Virus record (IMG/VR): IMGVR_UViG_2778261570_000015
Length of the DNA: 9,616 bases
DNA from: a virus
Taxonomy: Duplodnaviria > Heunggongvirae > Uroviricota > Caudoviricetes
Direction: 5' to 3' (one strand)
Part shown: positions 1 through 9,616 of the stretch, in pieces
Layout: the number at the start of each line of letters is the position of its first letter
How positions within the stretch are numbered: position 1 is the stretch's first letter
The notes under the pieces: model-generated
Database searches by the model: none
Seen by the model: the letters and a program-made list of their open reading frames with translations, nothing else
What the model was told of the DNA's origin: nothing
Position numbers and translations under genes: made by a program

Positions 1-294
<294 letters not shown>

Positions 295-600
295 CCGTCC
301 AGAAGAAGATATTTTCACTGGCTGGTATGTCGCCAAAATCCAGCAATATGACAGCAAAGTCTGGCATTAATACAGCAGATACAAGCAAAGTTTATCATTT
401 TCTGGTGGTAGGAGCGGATGCCTTAACTATGTCAGAAATTACGGTCGATGGTGTTAGCGTTGAGAAGGTCGGCGGCTGCGCCAGAGAATTTCTGGTCGTA
501 GATGGCTTTCTCTGCTCGCGTAGTGACTCCACAAAAACCTTCGTCCACACGCGCGACGTTAACGAAATGAGCGCGATGTATTGTGCATCTGGTGCTTCCA

Positions 601-628
601 ATAGTGAGTTTTCGGAGTCCATAAAAAA
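601..628 (+). repeat. Direct repeat copy 1 (AGTTTT-NN-GAGTCCATAAAAAA); partner at 6481-6504
   Basis: 14-nt exact match GAGTCCATAAAAAA at 615-628 and 6491-6504, extended to 20/22 identity by AGTTTT at 607-612 and 6483-6488. Confidence 0.6.
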
Positions 629-725
629 GAGCTTGCCGTTATGCGGCAACACGGTTTATGGTTATAAGGCACCTCATAAAACGGGTGCCGGGTTTCGCAG
701 CCCGGAAATGTACGAGGCGACACAT

Positions 726-747
726 GACGCGCCGAGCGTCTTTTTTT
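726..747 (+). terminator. Weak intrinsic terminator candidate (5-bp GC-rich stem, 5-nt loop, T7 tract)
   Basis: GACGC (726-730) pairs with GCGTC (736-740), followed by TTTTTTT (741-747). Short stem, so marginal. Confidence 0.35.
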
Positions 748-754
748 GTGCCGT

Positions 755-800
755 TAGCCAGACTCACACTTTTTTCAGTGATGCGGTTATAATCCGCGTC
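755..800 (+). promoter_or_regulatory. Sigma70-type promoter candidate for the primase operon; -10 TATAAT at 788-793 flanked by a GCGG/CCGC inverted repeat
   Basis: Perfect TATAAT hexamer at 788-793; the -35 region is poor (CACACT-like). GCGG (783-786) and CCGC (794-797) embrace the -10, an operator-like arrangement. First SD-bearing start codon downstream is at 950. Confidence 0.35.
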
Positions 801-949
801 GCTTGCAAAATTATGGTGGGCTGGACAGGGCAGCCGAAAGGCTGGCCGGTTTCCTTGTACGCCGGTACTGCGAACTCTGTTCAGTCCACCACCAGCGAGT
901 TTCGCAGCTCCGGTGGTGGGAAGAATTCCCAGTACAAGGAGGCTGCCAC

Positions 950-1144
950 ATGCTGGCTACTACCCCTACCCAAAAACCGCAATTTATCTGGATTATCGCC
1001 GCAGTTCGCCGCGATTGCCCGACAATTACCGCCAAAATTCATCATATTGCTGCCGAGTCTGAACGCGATGCTCGCCGTTCTCTGGTGCGCGATCACATCT
1101 GCTTTTTTGCTGGTCGTATCCGCATGGAGGTGGCACATGATTAA
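950..1144 (+). CDS. Hypothetical small protein, 64 aa (first gene of primase operon)
   Basis: ATG 950 preceded by AAGGAGG (936-942, spacing 7). Codons in this frame are enterobacterial-preferred (CGC/CGT, CTG, ACC, ATC); the alternative long frame here has CTA/TTA/AGG/ATA and about 6% Trp. Stop overlaps the next start. Confidence 0.55.
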   Translation: MLATTPTQKPQFIWIIAAVRRDCPTITAKIHHIAAESERDARRSLVRDHICFFAGRIRMEVAHD

Positions 1145-1355
1145 AACCTACGATGTGCATATGGATCCCCTCGAACGCACAAGCCAGATCATCACACTGA
1201 CAGAAGTGATTAACGACATTCTGGTGAGCAACTCTCCCTCACGAGACGAAAGACTGAAGGCGTTACTCGCGATATTGGATCTCGCCGTTCGTGACGTTCA
1301 TTTCCTGCTGGAAGGTGGACAAATGCCATGCAAAACGGGGGCAACCAATGAATAA
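1137..1355 (+). CDS. Hypothetical small protein, 72 aa
   Basis: ATG 1137 preceded by GGAGG (1126-1130); overlaps the previous stop (ATGATTAA). Same frame as the 288-1355 track ORF, of which it is probably the only real part. Confidence 0.55.
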   Translation: MIKTYDVHMDPLERTSQIITLTEVINDILVSNSPSRDERLKALLAILDLAVRDVHFLLEGGQMPCKTGATNE

Positions 1356-1542
1356 CTCAATTAATACCCCTCGCCTTACGTCCGCACTTCAATTAATCGA
1401 GCAAGCAGCGGCTGTCCTGGTTGCTGTCAGTCTTTCGGCTGAAGAAATGGACGCTGCTGATGTCGTGGATGCGATTAAAGCGTGCTCATCTTTGGTTAAC
1501 GATGCCCGTGCCGAGCTGGTAATTCTTGGGGGTGAAAAATGA
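1348..1542 (+). CDS. Hypothetical small protein, 64 aa (MNNSINTPRL...)
   Basis: ATG 1348 overlaps the previous stop at 1353-1355; GGGGG at 1336-1340 serves as SD. The track ORF 1291-1542 starts from an earlier in-frame ATG without an SD. Confidence 0.5.
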   Translation: MNNSINTPRLTSALQLIEQAAAVLVAVSLSAEEMDAADVVDAIKACSSLVNDARAELVILGGEK

Positions 1543-1802
1543 ATATCAACTTAATTTATCGTCATCCGTGTGAGCTGGAAATTGAATCATTGCTGGGGCG
1601 CGAAGAGCCATATCCAGACACATTCACTCCCGCAGATTGCGCGACTGAACGGCTTACCAGAGCGCGCACAGGTCTGGTTCATGTGATGAATGAGATTGTT
1701 CCCTCGGTGGGAGGGGAACAGGCGACAGTAATCAATAGCTGGCTACAAAAAGTTACCTCCCTGATAGATATCGGTTTAATCGATGTGGAGAGTGCGAAAT
1801 GA
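1539..1802 (+). CDS. Hypothetical small protein, 87 aa
   Basis: ATG 1539 overlaps the previous stop (ATGA); GGGGGTG upstream. Track ORF. Confidence 0.6.
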   Translation: MNINLIYRHPCELEIESLLGREEPYPDTFTPADCATERLTRARTGLVHVMNEIVPSVGGEQATVINSWLQKVTSLIDIGLIDVESAK

Positions 1803-2020
1803 CCAACATCCAGCTCATTGAAGCGCAATGTCGCATCGAACAGGTTCAGACTGTTTTAGGGTTCTGGCTTGAAGGGGCCAGCCCCAGCAACAGAGACAAG
1901 TTAATGATTGGCGCGGTTATGTCACTGCTCAATGGCGTACCAGAAGCTATTCAGGAAGCGGACGAATTGTTGGGCAAATATGAGTTACAGAATCATTCAG
2001 GCGAGGCGAAACATGAATAA
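1799..2020 (+). CDS. Hypothetical small protein, 73 aa
   Basis: ATG 1799 overlaps the previous stop (ATGA); GGAGAG upstream. Track ORF. Confidence 0.6.
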   Translation: MTNIQLIEAQCRIEQVQTVLGFWLEGASPSNRDKLMIGAVMSLLNGVPEAIQEADELLGKYELQNHSGEAKHE

Positions 2021-2615
2021 TTTCTTAACTTTCCATGCAGAAGCAACGCCTGACGGCGTAAACATCATGTACCGCAGCAACGATGGCATGACAGAACGCG
2101 TTGAGACCGTCTCATATATTGATGCCGTAAATCGTCTGGATGCCGGGGATTATGACGATAAACCAGATGAAGGCATGTTTATACATCTCGCTATTGCCAG
2201 TGGCGGCAACCAGGGATATTTCGATTACACATCACAGCATCACGTGATTATGTGGCGCTGGCTGATAGCAACAGCATTCATGCTGGAAATGAGAGAGGAA
2301 AACGGCACTGTCAGCATCATTGATGATACTGGCAATCCTTCCGAAGTGGCTGTTTATTCCAACGACATCGTCGCCATGCCGCTGTATCCAGTAGCAGAGC
2401 GCCTCGCTATGGCAAACAACATTGAGGGCGCGATGATAGAACGTTTTGGCATCGAGTCTGGCACAGAACGCGCCATCATTTTCTACAGAGCCATGATGGA
2501 TGTGGAACAAGGAGCACTGACTCCATTTGGTCGTGAAACGCTTGCTGAACTTCACAACAGCTTTATAGCTGAACTGAATGAAAACGGCATGCCAGCGGAA
2601 CCAGTGACGCACTGA
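2013..2615 (+). CDS. Hypothetical protein, 200 aa (MNNFLTFHAE...)
   Basis: ATG 2013 overlaps the previous stop at 2018-2020 with GAGG upstream. The track ORF 1908-2615 begins at an earlier ATG inside the preceding gene; the coupled start at 2013 is more plausible. Confidence 0.6.
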   Translation: MNNFLTFHAEATPDGVNIMYRSNDGMTERVETVSYIDAVNRLDAGDYDDKPDEGMFIHLAIASGGNQGYFDYTSQHHVIMWRWLIATAFMLEMREENGTVSIIDDTGNPSEVAVYSNDIVAMPLYPVAERLAMANNIEGAMIERFGIESGTERAIIFYRAMMDVEQGALTPFGRETLAELHNSFIAELNENGMPAEPVTH

Positions 2616-2625
2616 GGATGGAGCC

Positions 2626-2967
2626 ATGATTACTAAAAATTTCCGACTGAATGCGCTGGCAAATAAGTATGCGTCAGCACTGTATAACCACATTACCTCC
2701 ACCAGCGGCGGGGACTATTTCATGATTGATGCGGACGGAGAGGCCGTCCGTGTGGAAATCGTCAATGGAGTAAAAGGCGTTCGCAGCCTGATCGATAGTT
2801 ACGCACTGGCAGCCATGAAAGTGTTCTACCCGCAGTGGGAAACCGTGGGGATCGAGCTTCTTGATCGTTGCGTCACTAAGGACAGATTGACTGACGTCGG
2901 GCGTGAGATATGGCAAAGCATGGTTAATGACATGGGCGCAACTGTAGCGGGAGGTTCTCATGCGTGA
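2626..2967 (+). CDS. Hypothetical protein, 113 aa
   Basis: ATG 2626 with GAGGATGGAG upstream; 10-nt gap after the previous stop. Track ORF. Confidence 0.65.
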   Translation: MITKNFRLNALANKYASALYNHITSTSGGDYFMIDADGEAVRVEIVNGVKGVRSLIDSYALAAMKVFYPQWETVGIELLDRCVTKDRLTDVGREIWQSMVNDMGATVAGGSHA

Positions 2968-3331
2968 AAATGTAGAAATGGCGCTTAGCTCCGCAATCGG
3001 AGAGCAGGTGGCAAAGATTGCTGGTGCTGTGTGGATTCATAACCTTCATTCTACTGGTGAAGAGAAAATGGCAATTCAGACGCCAGAGGGACGCACCATT
3101 ACTACATCTCTGAAGCCGTCAGATGTTTGTGATCTGATTTGCGCATTCATGTACCCAGCAATGAGGACTGTCCACGGCGATAAGTGGAAACTTGCGACAA
3201 CCGCTGAATTTGATATGTGGCTAAACAATGATGGCATGCTGACTGATTACGGAATAACCAAGTGGCAGATGCTAGTTAGCCATATCGCAAACGCTATAGA
3301 CCACGTGGGGTACGGTGATGCGAAACATTGA
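2960..3331 (+). CDS. Hypothetical protein, 123 aa
   Basis: ATG 2960 overlaps the previous stop; GGGAGG upstream. Track ORF. Its 3' end overlaps the primase start by 14 nt. Confidence 0.65.
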   Translation: MRENVEMALSSAIGEQVAKIAGAVWIHNLHSTGEEKMAIQTPEGRTITTSLKPSDVCDLICAFMYPAMRTVHGDKWKLATTAEFDMWLNNDGMLTDYGITKWQMLVSHIANAIDHVGYGDAKH

Positions 3332-6074
3332 TCTTATCCGTCAGGTTATCAGTGCGTCTGAAAACAACTGGCCTCATGTGCTGGGCTGCCTGAACATAAA
3401 TGTCCCTGACTCTCCGCGCCGTCATGCTCCCTGCCCTGCATGTGGGGGCAAAGATCGATTCCGGTTCGATGACAACGGGCGCGGTAGCTTCATCTGTAAT
3501 CAGTGCGGCGCTGGTGATGGGCTGGATTTAATTAAACGCGTAAATAACTGCGACACAACAGAGGCGGCGCTTCTTGCCGCTGATGTTCTGGGTATTGATT
3601 ACCGGACAACGGAAACACCAGAAGCCACCAGCCAGAAACGGGAACAACTGGAAACCGAGCGCCAGCGACGCGAACAGGAGCGCCTGAAAAGGGCAGAGAA
3701 GGACGAACAACAAAGACGGGATACGTTTTCCCGTCAGTTTGATGACATGCGCAGAAAGGCTGTAAACGGCAAATCTGATTATCTGGTTGCGAAAGGGGTA
3801 GGTGATTTTACATTCCCCGTGTTGCCCGATGGATCTCTGTTGCTGGCGCTGGTGGATAAATCCGGCGCAGTAACAGCAGCACAGACTATTACCTCACATG
3901 GTGAAAAAAGACTCCTGACAGGTTCAGCAAAGCGAGGGGCATATCACGCCATAAACGCACCAGAAACAACACAGAGCATCTTAATCGCAGAAGGGCTGGC
4001 AACGGCATTATCTGCCCATTTAATGCGTCCAGAGGCGCTGACAGTGGCGGCGATTGATGCCGGGAACCTGTTATATGTCGCCCAGGTACTGCGGGATAAA
4101 TTTCCTTCAGCACAAATCATCATTGCTGCGGATAACGACCACAGCGAAGGAAGACAAAACACGGGGAGAATAGCAGCAGAAAAAGCAGCTTTATCTGTTT
4201 CTGGATGGGTGGCATTACCCCCGACAGATCACAAAGCAGACTGGAATGATTACCACCAAAAACACGGTATTAAATGCGCCACAGAAGCGTTCAATAAGTC
4301 AATGTACCAACCACAGGGTAATGGCGTGAAACAGGAGCCACAGACCATTGAGGGAAGCGATTTTAAGGTTATGGATACCGATCCACTGAAACCAAGAATA
4401 GAAAGCCGCGAGGATGGTATTTATTGGGTATCTCCGAGAGCTGACAGCCAGAGTGGAGAAATCATCAATAACGAAAGCTGGTTATGTTCTCCGTTAAGCG
4501 TTATCGGTACTGGCAGAGACGATAAAGACCAGTATCTCATTCTTCGCTGGCTGTCGTTTGGTTCTGAAACGCCGACAACCGCTGCCATTCCACTGGCTGA
4601 TATTGGTGAACGTGAAGGATGGCGCACACTTAAAGCTGGTGGGGTAAATGTCACGACCAAAAGCAGCCTCAGAGCAATACTGGCAGACTGGCTACAACGC
4701 AGTGGCTCTCGTGAATTGTGGCGTGTTGCTCATGCCACTGGCTGGCAATGCGGAGCGTACATCATGCCTGATGGGGAAATCATCGGAACACCTGAAAATC
4801 CTGTGCTGTTCAGCGGGAGAAGCTCAGCCGCAGCCGGATATACCGTCTCAGGGAGCGCGAAAAGCTGGCGTGATAACGTGGCGCGTCTGGCCTTTGGTAA
4901 CTATTCAATGATGACCGGGATCGGCGCAGCACTGGCAGCGCCATTGATTGGGCTGGTGGGCGCTGACGGGTTCGGCATTCATTTCTATGAGCAGTCGAGC
5001 GCAGGTAAGACCACCACGGCAAACGTGGCGAGCAGCTTATACGGCAACCCTGATTTACTGCGGCTGACGTGGTACGGAACCGCGCTGGGGCTGGCAAATG
5101 AGGCCGCCGCCCACAATGACGGACTAATGCCGCTTGATGAAGTTGGTCAGGGCGCTGATCCTGTCAGCGTTTCACAGTCTGCCTATGCGTTATTTAACGG
5201 TGTAGGGAAACTGCAAGGCGCTAAAGATGGTGGAAACCGGGATCTAAAACGCTGGCGTACAGTGGCAATCAGCACCGGAGAAATGGATTTAGAAACATTT
5301 ATCGCTACTTCCGGGCGAAAAACCAAAGCCGGGCAACTGGTGCGACTGCTGAATATTCCGTTGAGTAAAGCAGTACGCTTTCACGATTACCAGAACGGAA
5401 AACAGCACGCAGACGCACTGAAAGACGCTTACCAGCATCACCACGGCGCGTCCGGGCGTGAGTGGATTAAATGGCTGGCAGACCACCAGCAACAGGCTAT
5501 TAAAACCGTTCGTGACTGCGAAAGCAGATGGAGAAGCCTGATCCCATCCGATTATGGTGAGCAGGTTCACCGTGTAGCCGCGCGATTTGCCATTCTGGAG
5601 GCCGCATTGTTGTTAGGCGAGGTTGTAACAGGCTGGGATGCTCAGACATGCCGTGATGCGATACAGCACAGCTATAACGCATGGTTGCGCGAGTTCGGCA
5701 CAGGTAACAAAGAGCATCAGCAGATTATTGAACAAACGGAGGCATTTCTTAATGCCTATGGGCTTAGCCGTTTTGCACCATTTCCATACAGCCCGGCAGA
5801 TTTGCCCATCAAAGATTTAGCCGGATACCGTCAGCGTGGAGAACATGACGAAAGCCCAATGATTTTCTACACATTCCCGGCCACATTTGAAAAGGAGATC
5901 GCATGTGGTTTCAACGCAAAACAGTTTGCTGAAGTGTTGAAAAAAGCCGGGATGCTAACCCCACCAAACAGCGGTCGTGGATACCAAAGAAAATCACCAC
6001 GTATTCAGGGACGACAAATAAACGTTTATGTACTCAATTACCAGCCAGGAGATTATAACTCATCTGAAGAATGA
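3318..6074 (+). CDS. DNA primase-helicase (replication initiator), about 918 aa: N-terminal zinc ribbon, TOPRIM primase core, P-loop NTPase domain (phage P4 alpha-like / DUF927-like architecture)
   Basis: Zinc ribbon CPACGGKDRFRFDD...CNQCG (about 3420-3524). TOPRIM signatures IAEG and AADNDHSEGR (about 3972-4244). Walker A-like SSAGKTT and Walker B-like LMPLDEVGQ (about 4980-5150). Start ATG 3318 (GGGG at 3307-3310); the track's GTG 3315 is too close to the SD. Confidence 0.9.
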   Translation: MRNIDLIRQVISASENNWPHVLGCLNINVPDSPRRHAPCPACGGKDRFRFDDNGRGSFICNQCGAGDGLDLIKRVNNCDTTEAALLAADVLGIDYRTTETPEATSQKREQLETERQRREQERLKRAEKDEQQRRDTFSRQFDDMRRKAVNGKSDYLVAKGVGDFTFPVLPDGSLLLALVDKSGAVTAAQTITSHGEKRLLTGSAKRGAYHAINAPETTQSILIAEGLATALSAHLMRPEALTVAAIDAGNLLYVAQVLRDKFPSAQIIIAADNDHSEGRQNTGRIAAEKAALSVSGWVALPPTDHKADWNDYHQKHGIKCATEAFNKSMYQPQGNGVKQEPQTIEGSDFKVMDTDPLKPRIESREDGIYWVSPRADSQSGEIINNESWLCSPLSVIGTGRDDKDQYLILRWLSFGSETPTTAAIPLADIGEREGWRTLKAGGVNVTTKSSLRAILADWLQRSGSRELWRVAHATGWQCGAYIMPDGEIIGTPENPVLFSGRSSAAAGYTVSGSAKSWRDNVARLAFGNYSMMTGIGAALAAPLIGLVGADGFGIHFYEQSSAGKTTTANVASSLYGNPDLLRLTWYGTALGLANEAAAHNDGLMPLDEVGQGADPVSVSQSAYALFNGVGKLQGAKDGGNRDLKRWRTVAISTGEMDLETFIATSGRKTKAGQLVRLLNIPLSKAVRFHDYQNGKQHADALKDAYQHHHGASGREWIKWLADHQQQAIKTVRDCESRWRSLIPSDYGEQVHRVAARFAILEAALLLGEVVTGWDAQTCRDAIQHSYNAWLREFGTGNKEHQQIIEQTEAFLNAYGLSRFAPFPYSPADLPIKDLAGYRQRGEHDESPMIFYTFPATFEKEIACGFNAKQFAEVLKKAGMLTPPNSGRGYQRKSPRIQGRQINVYVLNYQPGDYNSSEE

Positions 6075-6097: not shown

Positions 6098-6126
6098 GTG
6101 TTGGTTCAGTTGGTTCAGTTGGTTCA
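6098..6126 (+). repeat. Three tandem direct iterons GTTGGTTCA (first copy extended to GTGTTGGTTCA)
   Basis: Copies at 6098-6108, 6109-6117 and 6118-6126, read directly from the sequence. Confidence 0.7.
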
Positions 6127-6168
6127 ATTTGTAAAGAGTATTGTTTTATAAGGATTTTATTCTTTTTA

Positions 6169-6212
6169 TTGAACCAACACTGAACCAACAACACGGTATT
6201 TTGAACCAACAC
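6169..6212 (+). repeat. Three inverted-orientation iterons TGAACCAAC(AC), reverse complement of the upstream iterons
   Basis: Copies at 6169-6180, 6180-6191 and 6201-6212; centre spacing about 11 and 20-21 bp, roughly one and two helical turns. Confidence 0.7.
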
Positions 6213-6836: not shown

Positions 6837-7298
6837 ATGGAACTAAAATTTATTGATAACCCTGTGCGATTACAGGCCTTTCTTAACGAGCCAGGCAATA
6901 CCGAAAATATTGTTGAGCCGGGGCACACGTACTACATCAAGCCTGATGCGGTATATCTCGGCATCTACGAAGGATTAGTGCTGGCTGGCGTTCATGAAGT
7001 GCGTAACTTCTGGCATAGCGTTGTTGAATGCCATGCGGTGTACGACCCCGGATTCCGTGGTGAATATGCACTGCAAGGACATCGATTATTCTGCAAATGG
7101 CTTCTCGAAAACTCACCATTCCTTAACAGCATCACTATGGTTCCTGACACCACGAAATACGGACGGGCAATTATCCGTTTGCTTGGCGCTACCCGTGTTG
7201 GTCACCTTGATGATGCTTATATCAGATGTGGTAAACCCGTCGGCGTAACGCTTTATCAGTTAACTCGGCAACAATATAAGGAATTCAGCGAATGTTAA
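6837..7298 (+). CDS. Hypothetical protein, 153 aa
   Basis: Track ORF; ATG 6837 with GGATGG upstream; stop overlaps the next start. No family recognised. Confidence 0.7.
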   Translation: MELKFIDNPVRLQAFLNEPGNTENIVEPGHTYYIKPDAVYLGIYEGLVLAGVHEVRNFWHSVVECHAVYDPGFRGEYALQGHRLFCKWLLENSPFLNSITMVPDTTKYGRAIIRLLGATRVGHLDDAYIRCGKPVGVTLYQLTRQQYKEFSEC

Positions 7299-7969
7299 TT
7301 ACCCATATAGCTCATAAACATCTCAATCGTGCCGTATACGAAAAAGGCGGTGATGGTGGTGCCTCTAAAGCTCAGGCGAAGGCCCAGCAGCAGGCAATTG
7401 ATTTGCAGCGCGAGCAGTGGAATACGGTGATGAATAATCTCAAGCCGTATGCAGAAGTCGGATTGCCTGCTTTACAACAACTACAAGGACTGATGACTCT
7501 GGAAGGGCAGAATAAAGCCGCGAATGATTTCTTTGGTTCTGGTTTATATAAAACACAGGCAGATCAGGCCCGTTATCAGAACCTTGTCTCAGCAGAAGCT
7601 ACCGGGGGGCTTGGCTCAACAGCTACCAGTAACCAGTTATCTTCCATTGCGCCCATGCTTTATAACAATTGGCTTAGTGGGCAAATGCAAAATTATGGAA
7701 ACCTGCTAAATGTCGGGATGAATGCGGCATCAGGGCAGGCAACGGCAGGGCAAAACTACGCCAATAATACCGGACAACTCTTGCAGGGGCTTGGCGCTAT
7801 TCGTGCAGGTCAGGCGCAGCAGCCATCCAGTCTTGCGCGTGGTATTGGTGGGGCAGCATCAGGCGCTTTAGCGGGTGCGCAACTTGGTTCCGTTGTTCCT
7901 GGAATAGGAACTGCGGCCGGCGCTATTGGTGGTGGGCTTATTGGTCTTGTTGGGGGGCTTGGATTCTAA
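7292..7969 (+). CDS. Ala/Gln/Gly-rich protein, 225 aa, with a glycine-zipper hydrophobic C-terminus; putative internal-virion/ejection-type protein
   Basis: Track ORF; start overlaps the previous stop; AAGGAA upstream. Low-complexity AQ-rich N-terminal part; C-terminus GIGTAAGAIGGGLIGLVGGLGF. Composition resembles podovirus internal core proteins; not verified by homology. Confidence 0.65.
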   Translation: MLITHIAHKHLNRAVYEKGGDGGASKAQAKAQQQAIDLQREQWNTVMNNLKPYAEVGLPALQQLQGLMTLEGQNKAANDFFGSGLYKTQADQARYQNLVSAEATGGLGSTATSNQLSSIAPMLYNNWLSGQMQNYGNLLNVGMNAASGQATAGQNYANNTGQLLQGLGAIRAGQAQQPSSLARGIGGAASGALAGAQLGSVVPGIGTAAGAIGGGLIGLVGGLGF

Positions 7970-9288
7970 TGGCGACATGGCAACTTGGCGGGCTGCCTAG
8001 CATGGCACCGCAAAATGATAATGCTCCTCGTTCTTCCGTTCCTCAGCCTGTGCAGTATCAGCAGCAGCCAAACGTAGGTTTAATGGCGCTACAGGGGCTA
8101 AGAGGCGTTGCTGAGATTAATCAGCAGGCGCAAATTTCCCAGCAGCTAAAAGAATATCAGGCACGGTTGGGTAGTGCGGTAGCTAATAATGATCGTGTTG
8201 GCGTGCAGAAGTTAATGGCCCAGTATCCCCAGTTTATGGCTGATTCTCAAAAACAGATGGGATTCATTGATGCTGAGCAAAATCGGCAGACCGCTGACGC
8301 TGCCATGAATCTGCGTCTTGCGTCACAAACTGGAGATCCACTGACCATGCAGAAGGCCATTCAGCAGGCAAATCCAGTATTACAGCGATTTGGTCTTCCT
8401 GCTGAAGAGGTTTATCAGTCTTGGCAGAATGACCCACAGGAATTCAACAGAATCACTGACCTCATCCACCTCCATGCTGATCCAAATAGTTACTTTAGTG
8501 TTCAAGAGAAGCAGCAAGGGCAGAGTATTGCACAGCAGAACGCAGATACATCTGCATATAATGCTCAGGTTAATGCGGAGCAGGGTAATCGGCGGCTCGA
8601 TATGGAGCAGTTCAAAGTCCTATCCGATAACCAACTACGCACGAGAGAAATGGTTCTGAAAGCACGACTTGGACGTGCTCAAAATGACATCGAGAGAGAC
8701 AAGCTCAATGCTGAACTGAGCAAGGTACAGCAGGCGAAAGTGGAGAAGATGAACGATAAAATTAATACTGTTGCAGGTAATATCGACTCCTTGAACTCTG
8801 CGCTTGAAGTGGGTCATGAACTGGCGGGAATTGTAGGGAAACATCCTTCGGCCGTTACCCGTTCGCAGAACTATAACCCCCTGACGCTGGGGTTTGGATT
8901 CCTCCCTGATGTAGCAGAAGACACACGAAGCCTACGCGCCAAAGCTGATGAATACAACCTAAAGGTTATTCTGCCTAGCCTAAAAGGTACTTTTGGCTCT
9001 AACCCAACCGAAGGGGAAAGGGCTGCCCTTATGCAATCTCAAAATGGCATTAAGTCAGCAACCAGCAATGAGGCATTTTTGCGAGAGTTGAATAAAGCGC
9101 AGGACGTAATTATTCGAATGCAGAAACGACAGATTGCCGGGCTCGGTATTCCTGTAACCAAATCTAAGGACGAAGAAACTGATACCAAAATGCTGTTGCA
9201 GGATCCTTCACTGGTTAAGGATTATGTGACCGCACATGGCTATCTGCCGGAAAGTTACTATCAGGCAAAACTTAAGGGATGGCAATGA
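7969..9288 (+). CDS. Gln/Ala-rich protein, 439 aa; putative internal-virion/ejection-type protein
   Basis: Track ORF; TAATG overlap with the previous gene and TGA overlap with the next. Q/A-rich, coiled-coil-like composition. Confidence 0.7.
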   Translation: MATWQLGGLPSMAPQNDNAPRSSVPQPVQYQQQPNVGLMALQGLRGVAEINQQAQISQQLKEYQARLGSAVANNDRVGVQKLMAQYPQFMADSQKQMGFIDAEQNRQTADAAMNLRLASQTGDPLTMQKAIQQANPVLQRFGLPAEEVYQSWQNDPQEFNRITDLIHLHADPNSYFSVQEKQQGQSIAQQNADTSAYNAQVNAEQGNRRLDMEQFKVLSDNQLRTREMVLKARLGRAQNDIERDKLNAELSKVQQAKVEKMNDKINTVAGNIDSLNSALEVGHELAGIVGKHPSAVTRSQNYNPLTLGFGFLPDVAEDTRSLRAKADEYNLKVILPSLKGTFGSNPTEGERAALMQSQNGIKSATSNEAFLRELNKAQDVIIRMQKRQIAGLGIPVTKSKDEETDTKMLLQDPSLVKDYVTAHGYLPESYYQAKLKGWQ

Positions 9289-9616
9289 TGGCACAACTGA
9301 CAGAAAAACAGAAAGCCTATTCCCGTCATCTCGATGAAAAATATGGTTTCCCATCAGGGACGATGGAAACATTAGTTGGCAATGAATCTAGTGGTAACGG
9401 AAGTGCCGAGTCACCGAAAGGAGCTAGAGGATTTGCTCAACTGATGCCCTCAGTAATGAGTGATGCTGGTTATCGTGGAACAGATCCGCGCTCACTGCCA
9501 TTTGAAAAGCAAATGGATATCGCAGCAAACCATCTCAATAAAGGAATGAAGCGATTTGGTGTGAACCGCCCCGGGTTTCCTGGAGAGTGTTTTATCTGTG
9601 AACTCAGGCTGCCAGA
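9285..9616 (+). CDS. Lytic transglycosylase (SLT) domain protein, N-terminal fragment; gene continues beyond the window
   Basis: ATG 9285 with AAGGGATGG upstream, overlapping the previous stop. Translation contains GNESSGNGSAESPKGARGFAQLMP, matching the SLT catalytic signature (ES...A.S..GA.G..Q), at the same N-terminal position as in T7 gp16-type internal virion protein D. Open to the end of the window. Confidence 0.7.
   Translation, partial: MMAQLTEKQKAYSRHLDEKYGFPSGTMETLVGNESSGNGSAESPKGARGFAQLMPSVMSDAGYRGTDPRSLPFEKQMDIAANHLNKGMKRFGVNRPGFPGECFICELRLP

Follow-up and report, generated by a model that had tools for sequence, protein, structure and literature searches.

Immunity of the phage P4 CI / P1 C4 type, a switch that silences the replication genes of a satellite element, is already well described, and the switch discussed here is not new. 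In P1 and P4, the C4/CI RNA is released from a longer leader by RNase P, which generates the 5' end; with its CCA-type 3' end, the product is a stable RNA of about 77-79 nt. Reportedly, it is the specificity boxes that set the immunity type (P1 vs P7), a point attributed to the work of Citron and Schuster in 1990. PMC10111431 sets out the eta/kil/CI logic and reports that it occurs in gram-negative PICIs. In Gifsy-1, the loop of a middle hairpin (b1) pairs with a box ~135 nt downstream within a C4-like RNA (PMC4825925). The Gifsy-1 authors call IsrK a structural homologue of P4 seqA (PMC4825925), and IsrK and C4 have been equated with P4 seqA and the CI RNA (PMC3632133; PMC4825925).

The window considered here is a 9,616-nt stretch of DNA from a virus of the Caudoviricetes (IMG/VR record IMGVR_UViG_2778261570_000015). 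An original prediction, made from the sequence alone, had pointed to an exact 10-mer, GTTTCGCAGC, at 692-701 and 899-908, and had proposed either a switch on the early/primase operon resembling the P4 CI RNA or a protein-binding site. Each copy of the 10-mer does lie in a hairpin loop. Very probably, the region is a P4-type (P1/P7 C4-type) immunity module that works through antisense RNA and belongs to a P4-like satellite or a chromosomal island. A small antisense RNA would be encoded between the two hairpins, with one loop as its upstream target and the other as its downstream target. The RNA switch is supported by the Rfam families shared with P4, by the identity to P4 given below, by a kil homologue, and by an alpha-like primase N-terminus, while the protein-binding site is without support.

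Comparison with P4, P1/P7, and Gifsy-1

The P4 cI/seqA region matches the Rfam families C4, isrK, and c4-a1b1 in the same order as the window, and the two sequences are 76% identical over 370 nt. Both contain, in order, an internal promoter (a probable one in the window), the seqA hairpins, an intrinsic terminator, the CI/C4 RNA (cI, or seqB, in P4), and seqC over the kil ribosome-binding site (RBS). In P4 terms, the upstream target b1 belongs to seqA and the downstream target b2 to seqC, and the P4 switch lies ahead of the alpha primase operon. In both, hairpin B is kept by compensatory changes, kil or its homologue comes next, and a long ORF runs across the module. Within this conserved scaffold, every box has been exchanged with full compensation. 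The b' box of the antisense RNA is CUGCGAA in the window and UUCUCAC in P4, with targets UUCGCAG and GUGAGAA, respectively; a' is CCUUGUAC in the window and CCUGUGAA in P4, with targets GUACAAGG and UUCACAGG. Since the specificity boxes differ, the window element and P4 are presumably heteroimmune. Judged from these sequences, the relation to the P4 CI system is one of homology, beyond the analogy first suggested.

There are also differences from P4. In the window, the spacer from terminator to CI is 45 nt shorter and contains a different hairpin; the kil-like ORF, whose P4 counterpart is nested in frame at the end of eta, is out of frame with the eta-like ORF; and the long ORF has an N-terminal part that shows no relation to that of P4. 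The C-terminal half of the window primase is DUF927-type, unlike P4 alpha, although the N-terminal domain is homologous. None of the P4 capsid genes sid, delta, and psu is present within the 21.5-kb stretch examined.

The window RNA belongs to the same RNA family as C4 of P1/P7 immI (RF01695, RF03163; 81 bits). In each case, a' is located in a loop and b' in a joint, and the targets are duplicated upstream and downstream, with the downstream copy covering the first RBS, that of the first ORF. A P1-like phage matches positions 652-960 of the window with 75% identity, and 'Icd protein' is annotated under the match. However, the cargo of P1/P7 is icd-ant, whereas that of the window is a kil-like ORF, small ORFs, and a primase operon, and in this respect the locus does not correspond to immI. 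In addition, an AntA/AntB-family gene lies upstream of the module here, in contrast to the downstream ant of P1/P7.

The Gifsy-1 IsrK/STnc1160/orf45-anrP locus (RF01394) shares with the window an isrK match and the arrangement, predicted for the window, of a short terminated RNA plus a read-through form. In Gifsy-1, the module has an antirepressor under its direct control and an antiterminator under its indirect control, with IsrK activating in trans, whereas the window cargo consists of replication genes. Furthermore, Gifsy-1 falls in a short-spacer class, with b1 at -112; b1 in the window is at -151.

The stretch is part of a common E. coli island, found near full-length in 226 of 5,426 complete genomes. 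The island has four zones, as in the gram-negative PICIs and P4-like satellites covered by the available text of PMC10111431: an integrase with a small HTH protein; a Bro/Ant zone, in which the CI and seqA relatives lie inside the long ORF; primase replication; and a late zone with captured helper late genes, which are of the P22-like phage (Lederbergvirus) type. Neither the island nor its box combination was found among the elements treated in that part of the paper.

The upstream leader and the C4 RNA

The features of the module are collected in Table 1.

Table 1. Features of the immunity module and its surroundings (window coordinates)
Feature	Position	Strand	Details
Long eta-like ORF, 355 aa (PGAP 'ash family protein')	288..1355	+	open frame
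Probable constitutive internal promoter (P4 PLE equivalent)	633..662	+	-35 TTGCCG 633-638, 18-nt spacer, -10 TATGGT 657-662
IsrK-like / P4 seqA-type leader RNA	669..746	+	hairpin 1 (669-674/683-688), hairpin A, a1 box, intrinsic terminator
Hairpin A, loop with b1 target box UUCGCAG (694-700)	688..705	+	sequence and Rfam
a1 target box GUACGAGG	710..717	+	pairs with a' CCUUGUAC, one G.U pair
Intrinsic terminator, GACGC GCCGA GCGTC then T7	726..747	+	3' end of short IsrK-like RNA
Spacer hairpin, 10 bp (777-786/794-803)	777..803	+	loop UUAUAAU holds TATAAT 788-793
C4 antisense RNA / P4 CI RNA homologue	809..896	+	Rfam RF01695
a' box UUUCCUUGUAC	850..860	+	12-nt loop of C4 hairpin 2
b' box CUGCGAA	868..874	+	single-stranded joint of C4; complement seen in the original prediction
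Hairpin B, b2 target box UUCGCAG (901-907) in 18-nt loop	886..919	+	8-bp stem
a2 target box and Shine-Dalgarno GUACAAGGAGG	932..942	+	11 bp possible with a' 850-860
Kil-like ORF, 64 aa, first translated after switch	950..1144	+	P4 kil homologue
Operon of overlapping small ORFs ending in TOPRIM/DUF927 primase (3315-6074)	1137..6074	+	ORFs and domains

The sequence at 633-662 aligns with TTGCCT...TATAGT in P4 and with TTGCTT...TATAGT in many relatives. Its agreement with the consensus is limited to 8 of 12 positions, and a promoter scan did not call it. By alignment, it is a probable constitutive internal promoter, whose start would lie near 669. This is also where position 1 of the Rfam isrK model falls. 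The isrK match (RF01394) scores 69.0 bits against a gathering score of 50 (E 1.8e-13). A match to c4-a1b1 (RF03163) at 656-708 reaches 22.5 bits, below the gathering score of 46.7; P4 itself, at 44.1 bits, is likewise just under this threshold, and the bases of the sub-threshold match are those covered by the isrK match.

Several structures make up the leader. Hairpin 1 is 99.3% paired among related loci, with all 6 pairs changed on both sides. Hairpin A has the stem (CCGGG 688-692 / CCCGG 701-705) and the loop (UUUCGCAG, 693-700) that were originally described; in the Rfam model its pairs are 689-693/700-704, and all of 72 distinct sequences keep the stem fully paired. The a1 box has a pairing score of 7.5/8 at an offset of -135. 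Another candidate for a1, UUAUAAGG at 662-669, was discarded after alignment with P4, and the register 711-718 gives only 34.5% pairing, 710-717 being correct. Between the two hairpins there is indeed, as had been noted, an intrinsic terminator (stem 726-740 and a T run up to 747). This terminator was detected independently of the isrK match; it is included in the isrK model, conserved in P4, and 96.5% paired in related loci.

The antisense RNA is a full-length match to the C4 model (positions 1-87), with 81.1 bits against a gathering score of 45 (E 3.7e-15). It is composed of a 17-bp closing stem (814-830/875-891), hairpin 1 (831-835/840-844), and hairpin 2 (845-849/862-866), and folding at minimum energy (-45.8 kcal/mol, z -4.9) reproduces the model structure exactly. 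In related loci, pairing in the closing stem reaches 99.7%, and 10 of its 17 pairs are compensated, as are 4 of 5 pairs of hairpin 1. Directly behind the closing stem is CCA (892-894), present in most relatives too.

The a' and b' boxes are each complementary to one upstream and one downstream site in the same transcript. Nowhere on the + strand of the window does a' form a better duplex than at 932 (the Shine-Dalgarno sequence, 932-942), with -15.2 kcal/mol. CTGCGAA at 868-874, which had been recognized as the complement of the repeat, is complementary to TTCGCAG (694-700). Its position inside the regulatory RNA gene itself (809-896) had been overlooked, as had the second box pair, a'/a1/a2, which is the pair that covers the Shine-Dalgarno sequence.

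Hairpin B and the ribosome-binding site

The arms of hairpin B, CCACCACC (886-893) and GGTGGTGG (912-919), are 100% complementary over 8 bp, and the hairpin ends 30 nt upstream of the ATG at 950. Its stem is 97.7% paired in related loci, and in 5 of the 8 pairs both sides have changed (e.g. CUAUCGCC/GGCGAUAG in P4). Beyond it, a2 includes GGAGG (938-942), 7 nt upstream of the ATG, and thus the downstream target overlaps the RBS of the first gene. The a2-a' duplex has an energy of -14.9 kcal/mol, a value reached in 1 of 500 shuffles. A minimum-energy fold of 892-960 that hides both the Shine-Dalgarno sequence and the AUG (-35.2 kcal/mol, z -5.2) was rejected. It is 63.6% paired in relatives, with covariation equal to that of shuffles, and only its mostly conserved CUCC/GGAG core pairs in most related sequences.

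Hairpin B also has ties to the C4 RNA. Six bases of its 5' arm (886-891) form the 3' strand of the C4 closing stem as well, while part of its 3' arm (UGGUGG, 914-919) repeats the 5' strand of that stem (814-819). In relatives, hairpin B co-varies with this closing stem; in P4, whose C4 stem includes wobbles, every pair of hairpin B is Watson-Crick. Beyond displaying b2, hairpin B could, though we think it unlikely, work in cis as a toggle within read-through transcripts. C4 could fold in one state and the RNA be processed, leaving b2 single-stranded; in the other, hairpin B could form, opening the base of C4 and offering b2 as a kissing loop. If this were true, each transcript would choose between being repressor RNA and being target or message. 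No description of such a toggle was found in the literature outside the P4 primary papers.

Covariation of boxes and targets

A set of 74 related loci was picked by scaffold alone. It contains 21 a' variants and 13 b' variants in 38 box combinations, with matching targets at fixed offsets. The exact complement of a locus's own b' is present upstream in 59 of the 74 loci and downstream in 68; for a', the counts are again 59 upstream and 68 downstream. When boxes are borrowed from other loci, there are 0-1.2 matches. Upstream, the b1-b' pairing is 98.2% paired with both sides changed in 6 of 7 pairs, and a1-a' is 96.2% paired with both sides changed in 6 of 8. Downstream, b'-b2 (99.6% paired) and a'-a2 (93.8% paired) have 6 of 7 and 6 of 11 pairs compensated, respectively. 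By pair counts, 98.4% are paired. The covariation is 0.494, while shuffles give 0.18 and slid partners no more than 0.09. When b1-b', a1-a', and hairpin B are taken together, 97.3% are paired, and the covariation is 0.652, while shuffles give 0.20 and slid partners no more than 0.15. In both comparisons the shuffles overstate significance, because the loci have a common ancestry, and the fair controls are the slid-partner and cross-locus ones.

The targets, then, co-vary with the boxes almost perfectly over the 74 loci. The original prediction had offered loops that are neither conserved nor co-varying in relatives as grounds for its own refutation; the loops do co-vary. The four complementarities and their covariation, together with the RNA folds, the homology to P4, the RBS overlap, and a conserved open frame, are seen directly in the sequence data.

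Proposed mechanism and possible role of the upstream RNA

A leader transcript from near 669 would carry, in order, hairpin A, the intrinsic terminator, the C4/CI RNA, and hairpin B. Hairpin A with b1 in its loop, followed by a1, would be the equivalent of P4 seqA and IsrK. By analogy with the homologues, the C4/CI RNA, of ~80 nt with a tRNA-like stem and two hairpins, would be cut out of the leader. Its exposed a' (in the hairpin loop) and b' (in the single-stranded joint) would pair with two-part targets, consisting of b1 and a1 upstream and of b2, in the hairpin B loop, and a2, over the GGAGG of the first ORF, downstream. Pairing with a2 and b2 would block ribosome entry on the kil-like ORF; the untranslated RNA would then be terminated, and the primase replication operon would be off while the element is quiescent. 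Transcription from an upstream operon would translate the eta-like ORF across the module, which would override the block. We infer RNA processing, the translational block, Rho-dependent termination, and the override from work on P4, P1, and Gifsy-1, as all of these functional steps are transferred from homologues. Hairpin A could contribute with either sign, since the upstream target is needed for immunity in P4 and is an activator in Gifsy-1.

The short RNA of 669-746, with b1 and a1, might instead serve as a trans decoy, or anti-antisense, that pairs with a' and b', frees the RBS, and turns the downstream genes on. This reading, which we hold to be possible but rather less than probable, can be compatible with the module described above; in that case, hairpin A would serve activation instead of being a target for repression. 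The isrK match above threshold, an intrinsic terminator that would give an RNA of ~78 nt, and the pairing potential that b1 and a1 share with b2 and a2 all agree with it. In Gifsy-1, translation is activated when short IsrK binds in trans to the read-through transcript, and the compensatory changes G28A/C162U and G31A/C159U fall in the counterparts of b1 and b' (PMC4825925). However, in P4-like prophages the IsrK-like sequence is reportedly needed to establish, and perhaps to maintain, lysogeny, an effect of the opposite sign (PMC3632133). Moreover, a1 of the window is a weaker competitor than a2 (-11.7 vs -14.9 kcal/mol), as it contains one G.U pair and is missing the three extra pairs of a2.

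Open reading frames across the module

The antisense-RNA module lies within a long ORF that corresponds to P4 eta (PMC10111431). This eta-like ORF, whose ATG overlaps the stop of a DUF4222 ORF (28-294), spans the internal promoter, the IsrK-like RNA, the terminator, the C4 RNA, and seqC. Its alignment with the 214-aa ORF of P4 (8168-8812) is confined to the RNA region, and Pfam Phage_ASH matches aa 124-232 (nt 657-983). RefSeq annotates the stretch as a single long 'ash family protein' CDS and leaves out the kil-like ORF. From IsrK-like hairpin 1 to the Shine-Dalgarno sequence, the eta-like frame is stop-free in 60 of 65 distinct related loci, compared with 12 and 1 for the other two frames. 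In addition, spacer lengths differ by multiples of 3 among loci with full four-site complementarity (b1 between -112 and -196). On the grounds of the open frames and the spacer lengths, the idea that the 'ash' CDS is a spurious translation of RNA genes was rejected.

Given this frame, the 10-mer might reflect a repeated peptide motif of the eta-like/'Ash' ORF (…G-F-R-S-P… and …E-F-R-S-S…). The two copies are 207 nt (899-692), or 69 codons, apart and hence lie in one frame, which is the widely open one, and the Pfam family is built on its translation. Yet such an origin is highly improbable, as the boxes change in a way that maintains pairing with b', transversions on both partners included, but leaves the peptide unprotected, since the residues encoded by UUCGCAG, GUGAGAA, UUGGCGU, and GUAGGAA differ. 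Nor would a peptide repeat explain the third partner, b', which is the reverse complement. The open frame itself is accounted for by the known requirement that eta be translated through the module (PMC10111431).

The kil-like ORF is 42% identical to the C-terminal 65 aa of the P4 ORF (E 5e-11) and matches phrog_1743, and its start region, ATGGCTAC, is conserved in relatives. It is not in the eta-like frame because of a 2-nt difference just upstream of the ATG, an arrangement common to loci L022, L032, L079, L087, and L108. The eta-like frame runs on to 1355, ending in the frame of the second small ORF. Overlapping ORFs continue from 950 to the primase, whose N-terminal ~340 aa, the N-terminal third, are 33% identical to P4 alpha (E 2e-41). 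The operon of 1137-6074 is presumed to be the regulated cargo. Elsewhere in the window, the minus-strand ORF at 395-652 has no protein similarity to the P22-like small terminase, and Rfam microRNA/snoRNA matches at 6099-6190 and 1531-1593, far below threshold, were dismissed.

The spacer hairpin and the TATAAT sequence

The spacer hairpin has a fold energy of -16 kcal/mol. Among medium-spacer relatives, a hairpin of 9-12 bp is found here in 17 of 18 distinct sequences, with differing stem sequences, and an interrupted 8-bp stem takes its place in the other one. In short-spacer relatives, the spacer segment with TATAAT is missing altogether. The original prediction had also placed a promoter between the two hairpins. 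This promoter is doubtful, and TATAAT (788-793) was rejected as a -10 sequence: it has no acceptable -35, it was not called by the scan, it lies inside the loop of a co-varying hairpin, and it is absent from the short-spacer relatives.

The position of the 10-mer on both sides of TATAAT, together with the HTH and AntA/AntB genes encoded upstream, would fit DNA operators, in which the repeats flank a promoter and bind a repressor, such as the HTH or antirepressor-family proteins of the island. We find this scarcely credible. The copies are direct, non-palindromic repeats; they always co-vary with a complementary box in a structured RNA and lie in the loops of co-varying RNA hairpins. Furthermore, most relatives are missing the TATAAT, which here is in a hairpin loop, and still keep the boxes.

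On its own, the repeat is weak evidence. With one mismatch allowed, GTTTCGCAGC has 3 matches where 0.87 would be expected, a count reached by 9 of 200 shuffles. It rises above chance through its context: both copies are complementary to a box in a high-scoring C4 RNA, and the three sites co-vary over the 74 loci. A chance repeat in GC-rich structured sequence, for which the unimpressive shuffle count would speak, has a negligible probability, being refuted by the fixed positions and the near-perfect covariation over 38 box combinations.

Implications

For annotation, the island stretch holds two RNA genes and a regulatory leader. For biology, the module represents nothing new in kind, adding one further immunity type to the P4 CI / P1 C4 family. 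Its box pair, CCUUGUAC/CUGCGAA, is absent from the 73 other loci sampled, and such an unseen pair fits the mix-and-match of specificity boxes that is evident from the numbers of a' variants, b' variants, and observed combinations. Mixed specificity boxes would allow related elements to coexist without cross-immunity.

A C4-type immunity module

The region that holds hairpins A and B is a textbook P4 CI/P1 C4 immunity module, recognised directly by current RNA family models. When the window was searched with the Rfam models, two scored above their curated thresholds: C4 antisense RNA, the homologue of the P4 CI RNA, and the leader RNA IsrK (seqA). The a1/b1 target motif also matched, but below its threshold. 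The second IsrK hairpin is hairpin A, and an energy-only fold of the C4 segment (-45.8 kcal/mol, z -4.9) is identical to the model structure.

Features of the leader region and their positions in the window
Feature	Position	Details
Eta-like ORF	288-1355	355 aa
Candidate promoter	633-662	TTGCCG-18-TATGGT
a1/b1 target motif	656-708	sub-threshold
IsrK (RF01394)	669-746	69.0 bits, threshold 50
Hairpin A	688-692/701-705	CCGGG/CCCGG, loop UUUCGCAG
10-nt repeat	692-701, 899-908	GTTTCGCAGC, both without mismatch
a1	710-717	
Intrinsic terminator	726-740 (stem)	followed by T run
Spacer hairpin	777-786/794-803	10 bp, -16 kcal/mol, TATAAT loop
C4 (RF01695)	809-896	81.1 bits, threshold 45
a' (C4 hairpin 2 loop)	850-860	UUUCCUUGUAC
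b'	868-874	CTGCGAA
Hairpin B	886-893/912-919	CCACCACC/GGTGGTGG
a2	932-942	GUACAAGGAGG
Kil-like ORF	950-1144	64 aa
Next small ORF	1137-1355	72 aa

The original prediction had described a repeat displayed by two hairpins, its complement CTGCGAA, and a terminator between the hairpins, and all of these are present. The repeat by itself is statistically unremarkable, its count being equalled in 9 of 200 shuffles. CTGCGAA, complementary to TTCGCAG, is the b' box and lies in a single-stranded joint of the C4 fold; the 3' end of hairpin B is 30 nt upstream of the kil-like ATG.

A second set of boxes (a', a1 and a2) was overlooked. The a' loop and a2 can form 11 bp, and a2 is the best duplex partner of a' on the whole + strand of the window. 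It spans the entire Shine-Dalgarno (SD) sequence, 7 nt upstream of the ATG at 950. The a1 box is directly 3' of hairpin A, and its pairing with a' includes one G.U. Since b1 plus a1 and b2 plus a2 can pair with b' and a', the targets are two-part, b before a, and both b targets are displayed in hairpin loops. Segment 892-960 can also adopt another fold of favourable energy, in which the SD and AUG are hidden, but relatives give this fold no support.

Comparison with phage P4

The P4 genome (NC_001609) was put through the identical Rfam scan. Its cI region scores 74.9 bits for C4, 60.8 for isrK and 44.1 for c4-a1b1, and the families have the same order and orientation as in the window, upstream of the alpha primase operon. 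Window 630-1000 is 76% identical to P4; the scaffold is conserved, whereas the short boxes have changed, with compensation at all partner sites; the changes in hairpin B are compensated as well. The kil-like ORF, the first after the switch, shares 42% identity with the C-terminal 65 aa of the long P4 ORF (kil), and the N-terminal ~340 aa of the window primase are 33% identical to alpha.

Boxes and hairpin B arms in the window and in P4
Element	Window	P4
b'	CUGCGAA	UUCUCAC
b1, b2	UUCGCAG	GUGAGAA
a'	CCUUGUAC	CCUGUGAA
a1 / a2	GUACGAGG / GUACAAGG	UUCACAGG for both
Hairpin B	CCACCACC/GGUGGUGG	CUAUCGCC/GGCGAUAG

Covariation in related loci

Viral contigs were searched with the invariant C4 hairpin 2 stem, and among the matches listed 74 loci were kept for having the closing stem and hairpin 1 of C4, whatever their boxes. 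Among these 74 there are at least 21 a' boxes, at least 13 b' boxes and at least 38 combinations; this number of combinations suggests independent exchange of the a and b boxes. A locus's own b' is exactly complemented upstream in 59 and downstream in 68 of the 74, and the same counts hold for a'; with boxes from other loci, the counts (of 74) are 1.2 upstream and 0.15 downstream for b', and 0.02 and 1.2 for a'. Among the same matches, the downstream targets have constant offsets (b2 +56, a2 +87), and b1/a1 are found at -112/-96, -151/-135 or -196/-180.

Pairing in the 74-sequence alignment (loci among the matches listed)
Pairing	Cells paired	Pairs with both sides changed
b'-b2	99.6%	6/7
a'-a2	93.8%	6/11
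b1-b'	98.2%	6/7
a1-a'	96.2%	6/8
Hairpin B	97.7%	5/8
Hairpin A	100%	2/4
C4 closing stem	99.7%	10/17

When partners are slid by 1-3 columns, pairing falls to 33-56% and the covariation score drops from 0.49-0.65 to 0.15 or less. A shuffle control is generous because the loci are related; the slid-partner and cross-locus controls are free of this weakness. Thus, the loops, whose covariation had been proposed as a check, are kept in place and covary in relatives. Together, the Rfam C4 and IsrK matches, the P4 homology and the box covariation bear out the earlier reading of a P4-CI-like RNA switch.

Among the matches listed, eight other loci (L005, L026, L044, L047, L070, L073, L096 and L106, handles for related loci in viral contigs) also have b' CUGCGAA with a perfect b2. 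The b1 loop in those eight is GGUCGCAG, with one mismatch to b', whereas b1 is identical to b2 only in the window. One viral contig, L026, carries two complete IsrK-C4-seqC modules (seqC being the downstream target region) on the minus strand, at 9636-9975 and 10948-11287, 1.3 kb apart; their box pairs differ (CCGTATGC/GTTCCAA and CCTTGATC/CTGCGAA).

The eta-like frame and its annotation

RefSeq/PGAP gives 288-1355 as one 'ash family protein', a CDS that takes in the promoter, both RNA genes and the leader; the kil-like ORF, the 72-aa ORF and the RNA genes are missing from this annotation. The Pfam Phage_ASH match (aa 124-232, nt 657-983) coincides with the IsrK-C4-seqC module. Two results argue against a spurious CDS. 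Among the matches listed, the eta-like frame has no stop between IsrK hairpin 1 and the SD in 60 of the 65 distinct loci (the other frames, in 12 and 1), and the spacer-length classes of fully matching loci, from -112 to -196, are all multiples of three apart. P4 has an equivalent open frame at 8168-8812. Taken together, the open frame in relatives, the spacers and the P4 frame identify 288-1355 as the eta equivalent. In the window, L022, L032, L079, L087 and L108, the kil-like and eta-like ORFs are in different frames owing to a 2-nt difference upstream of the ATG, and the window's eta-like frame ends in that of the next small ORF.

Promoters and the spacer hairpin

The promoter originally placed between the hairpins, TATAAT at 788-793, is doubtful: it has no usable -35, is not called by the promoter scan, and forms the loop of the 10-bp spacer hairpin between the IsrK terminator and C4. 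Among the matches listed, a 9-12 bp hairpin occupies this position in 17 of 18 distinct medium-spacer sequences and is an interrupted 8 bp in one, L087; the stem sequences vary, and the AT-rich loops have 4-8 nt (carriers: L009, L020, L022, L025, L033, L045, L048, L050, L066, L087, L091, L092, L095, L100, L108, L115 and L121). Short-spacer loci do not have it, and the P4 insert there is longer. Because the terminator-to-C4 distance in short-spacer relatives is only ~20 nt, C4 in this family would be made by read-through from an upstream promoter. The better candidate is probably that at 633-662, which aligns with P4 TTGCCT...TATAGT; its predicted RNA start, ~669, is isrK model position 1. A hairpin resembling a terminator lies on the minus strand at 623-649 (TTGCCGCATAACGGCAA, then a T run) and overlaps the -35 of this proposed internal promoter.

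The rest of the island

According to PMC10111431, gram-negative PICIs carry CI and seqA relatives and are divided into zones for integrase/AlpA, for Bro and the immunity RNAs, for replication and for captured late genes, four in all; the window's island has this layout. The late zone, 6837-9616 and continuing in the sequence L001 (12783-17951), contains genes of P22-like phage (Lederbergvirus) type, for a DUF2824 protein, a hypothetical protein, a 'phage DNA ejection protein' and a lytic-transglycosylase protein; 6930-7325 has ~90% identity to phages Kapi1 and Louie. The P4 capsid genes sid, delta and psu are absent from the 21.5-kb stretch examined.

At 436-549, where the eta-like ORF encodes its N-terminal region, the opposite (minus) strand carries in sense orientation a ~110-nt piece of a P22-like small-terminase gene (gene 3; 86-88% identity), which encodes no TerS protein. 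It starts at phage sequence GAAGATTTATCTGAAGTCGTTA, the P22 pac site; the window counterpart is GAAGGTTTTTGTGGAGTCACTA, followed by ~90 nt at >90% identity. The piece could be a pac-site mimic for packaging of the island by a P22-like helper phage.

Directly after the primase stop (6074), 6098-6212 resembles an iteron-type replication origin, in which three direct copies of GTTGGTTCA with 9-nt spacing (6100-6126) precede a 40-nt AT-rich spacer and three inverted copies, TGAACCAAC (6170-6210). Rfam microRNA matches there are spurious, being accounted for by these direct and inverted repeats.

Proposed mechanism

C4/CI RNA is processed by RNase P, the P4 terminator is Rho-dependent, and P1/P7 heteroimmunity runs through the boxes. 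By homology, the C4/CI RNA would pair with seqC, at b2 in the hairpin B loop and at a2 over the SD; this pairing would stop translation of the kil-like ORF, with transcription then ending upstream of the primase operon. The block would be overridden when the eta-like ORF is translated from transcripts that start upstream. As PMC10111431 describes P4, with reference to Sabbattini 1995 and Forti 1999, a constitutive promoter within the long gene eta yields a transcript that RNA interactions involving CI and seqA soon terminate; CI is a processing product of this transcript; Kil is a truncated product, full-length Eta being made only from the upstream late promoter; and Eta translation prevents termination.

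IsrK is a structural homologue of P4 seqA, and compensatory mutations show that its middle hairpin pairs with a site ~135 nt downstream (Hershko-Shalev et al. 2016, PMC4825925). In Gifsy-1, IsrK is reported as a trans-activator (PMC4825925), and hairpin A may act in this way, a role that may coexist with immunity. However, in P4-like prophages seqA/IsrK is reported to be required for immunity (PMC3632133). Within the C4 immunity module itself, hairpin B and the C4 closing stem have six bases in common and so cannot both form fully, an exclusion that may serve as a functional toggle. The type of module is already known, and the main use of the result is annotation correction.
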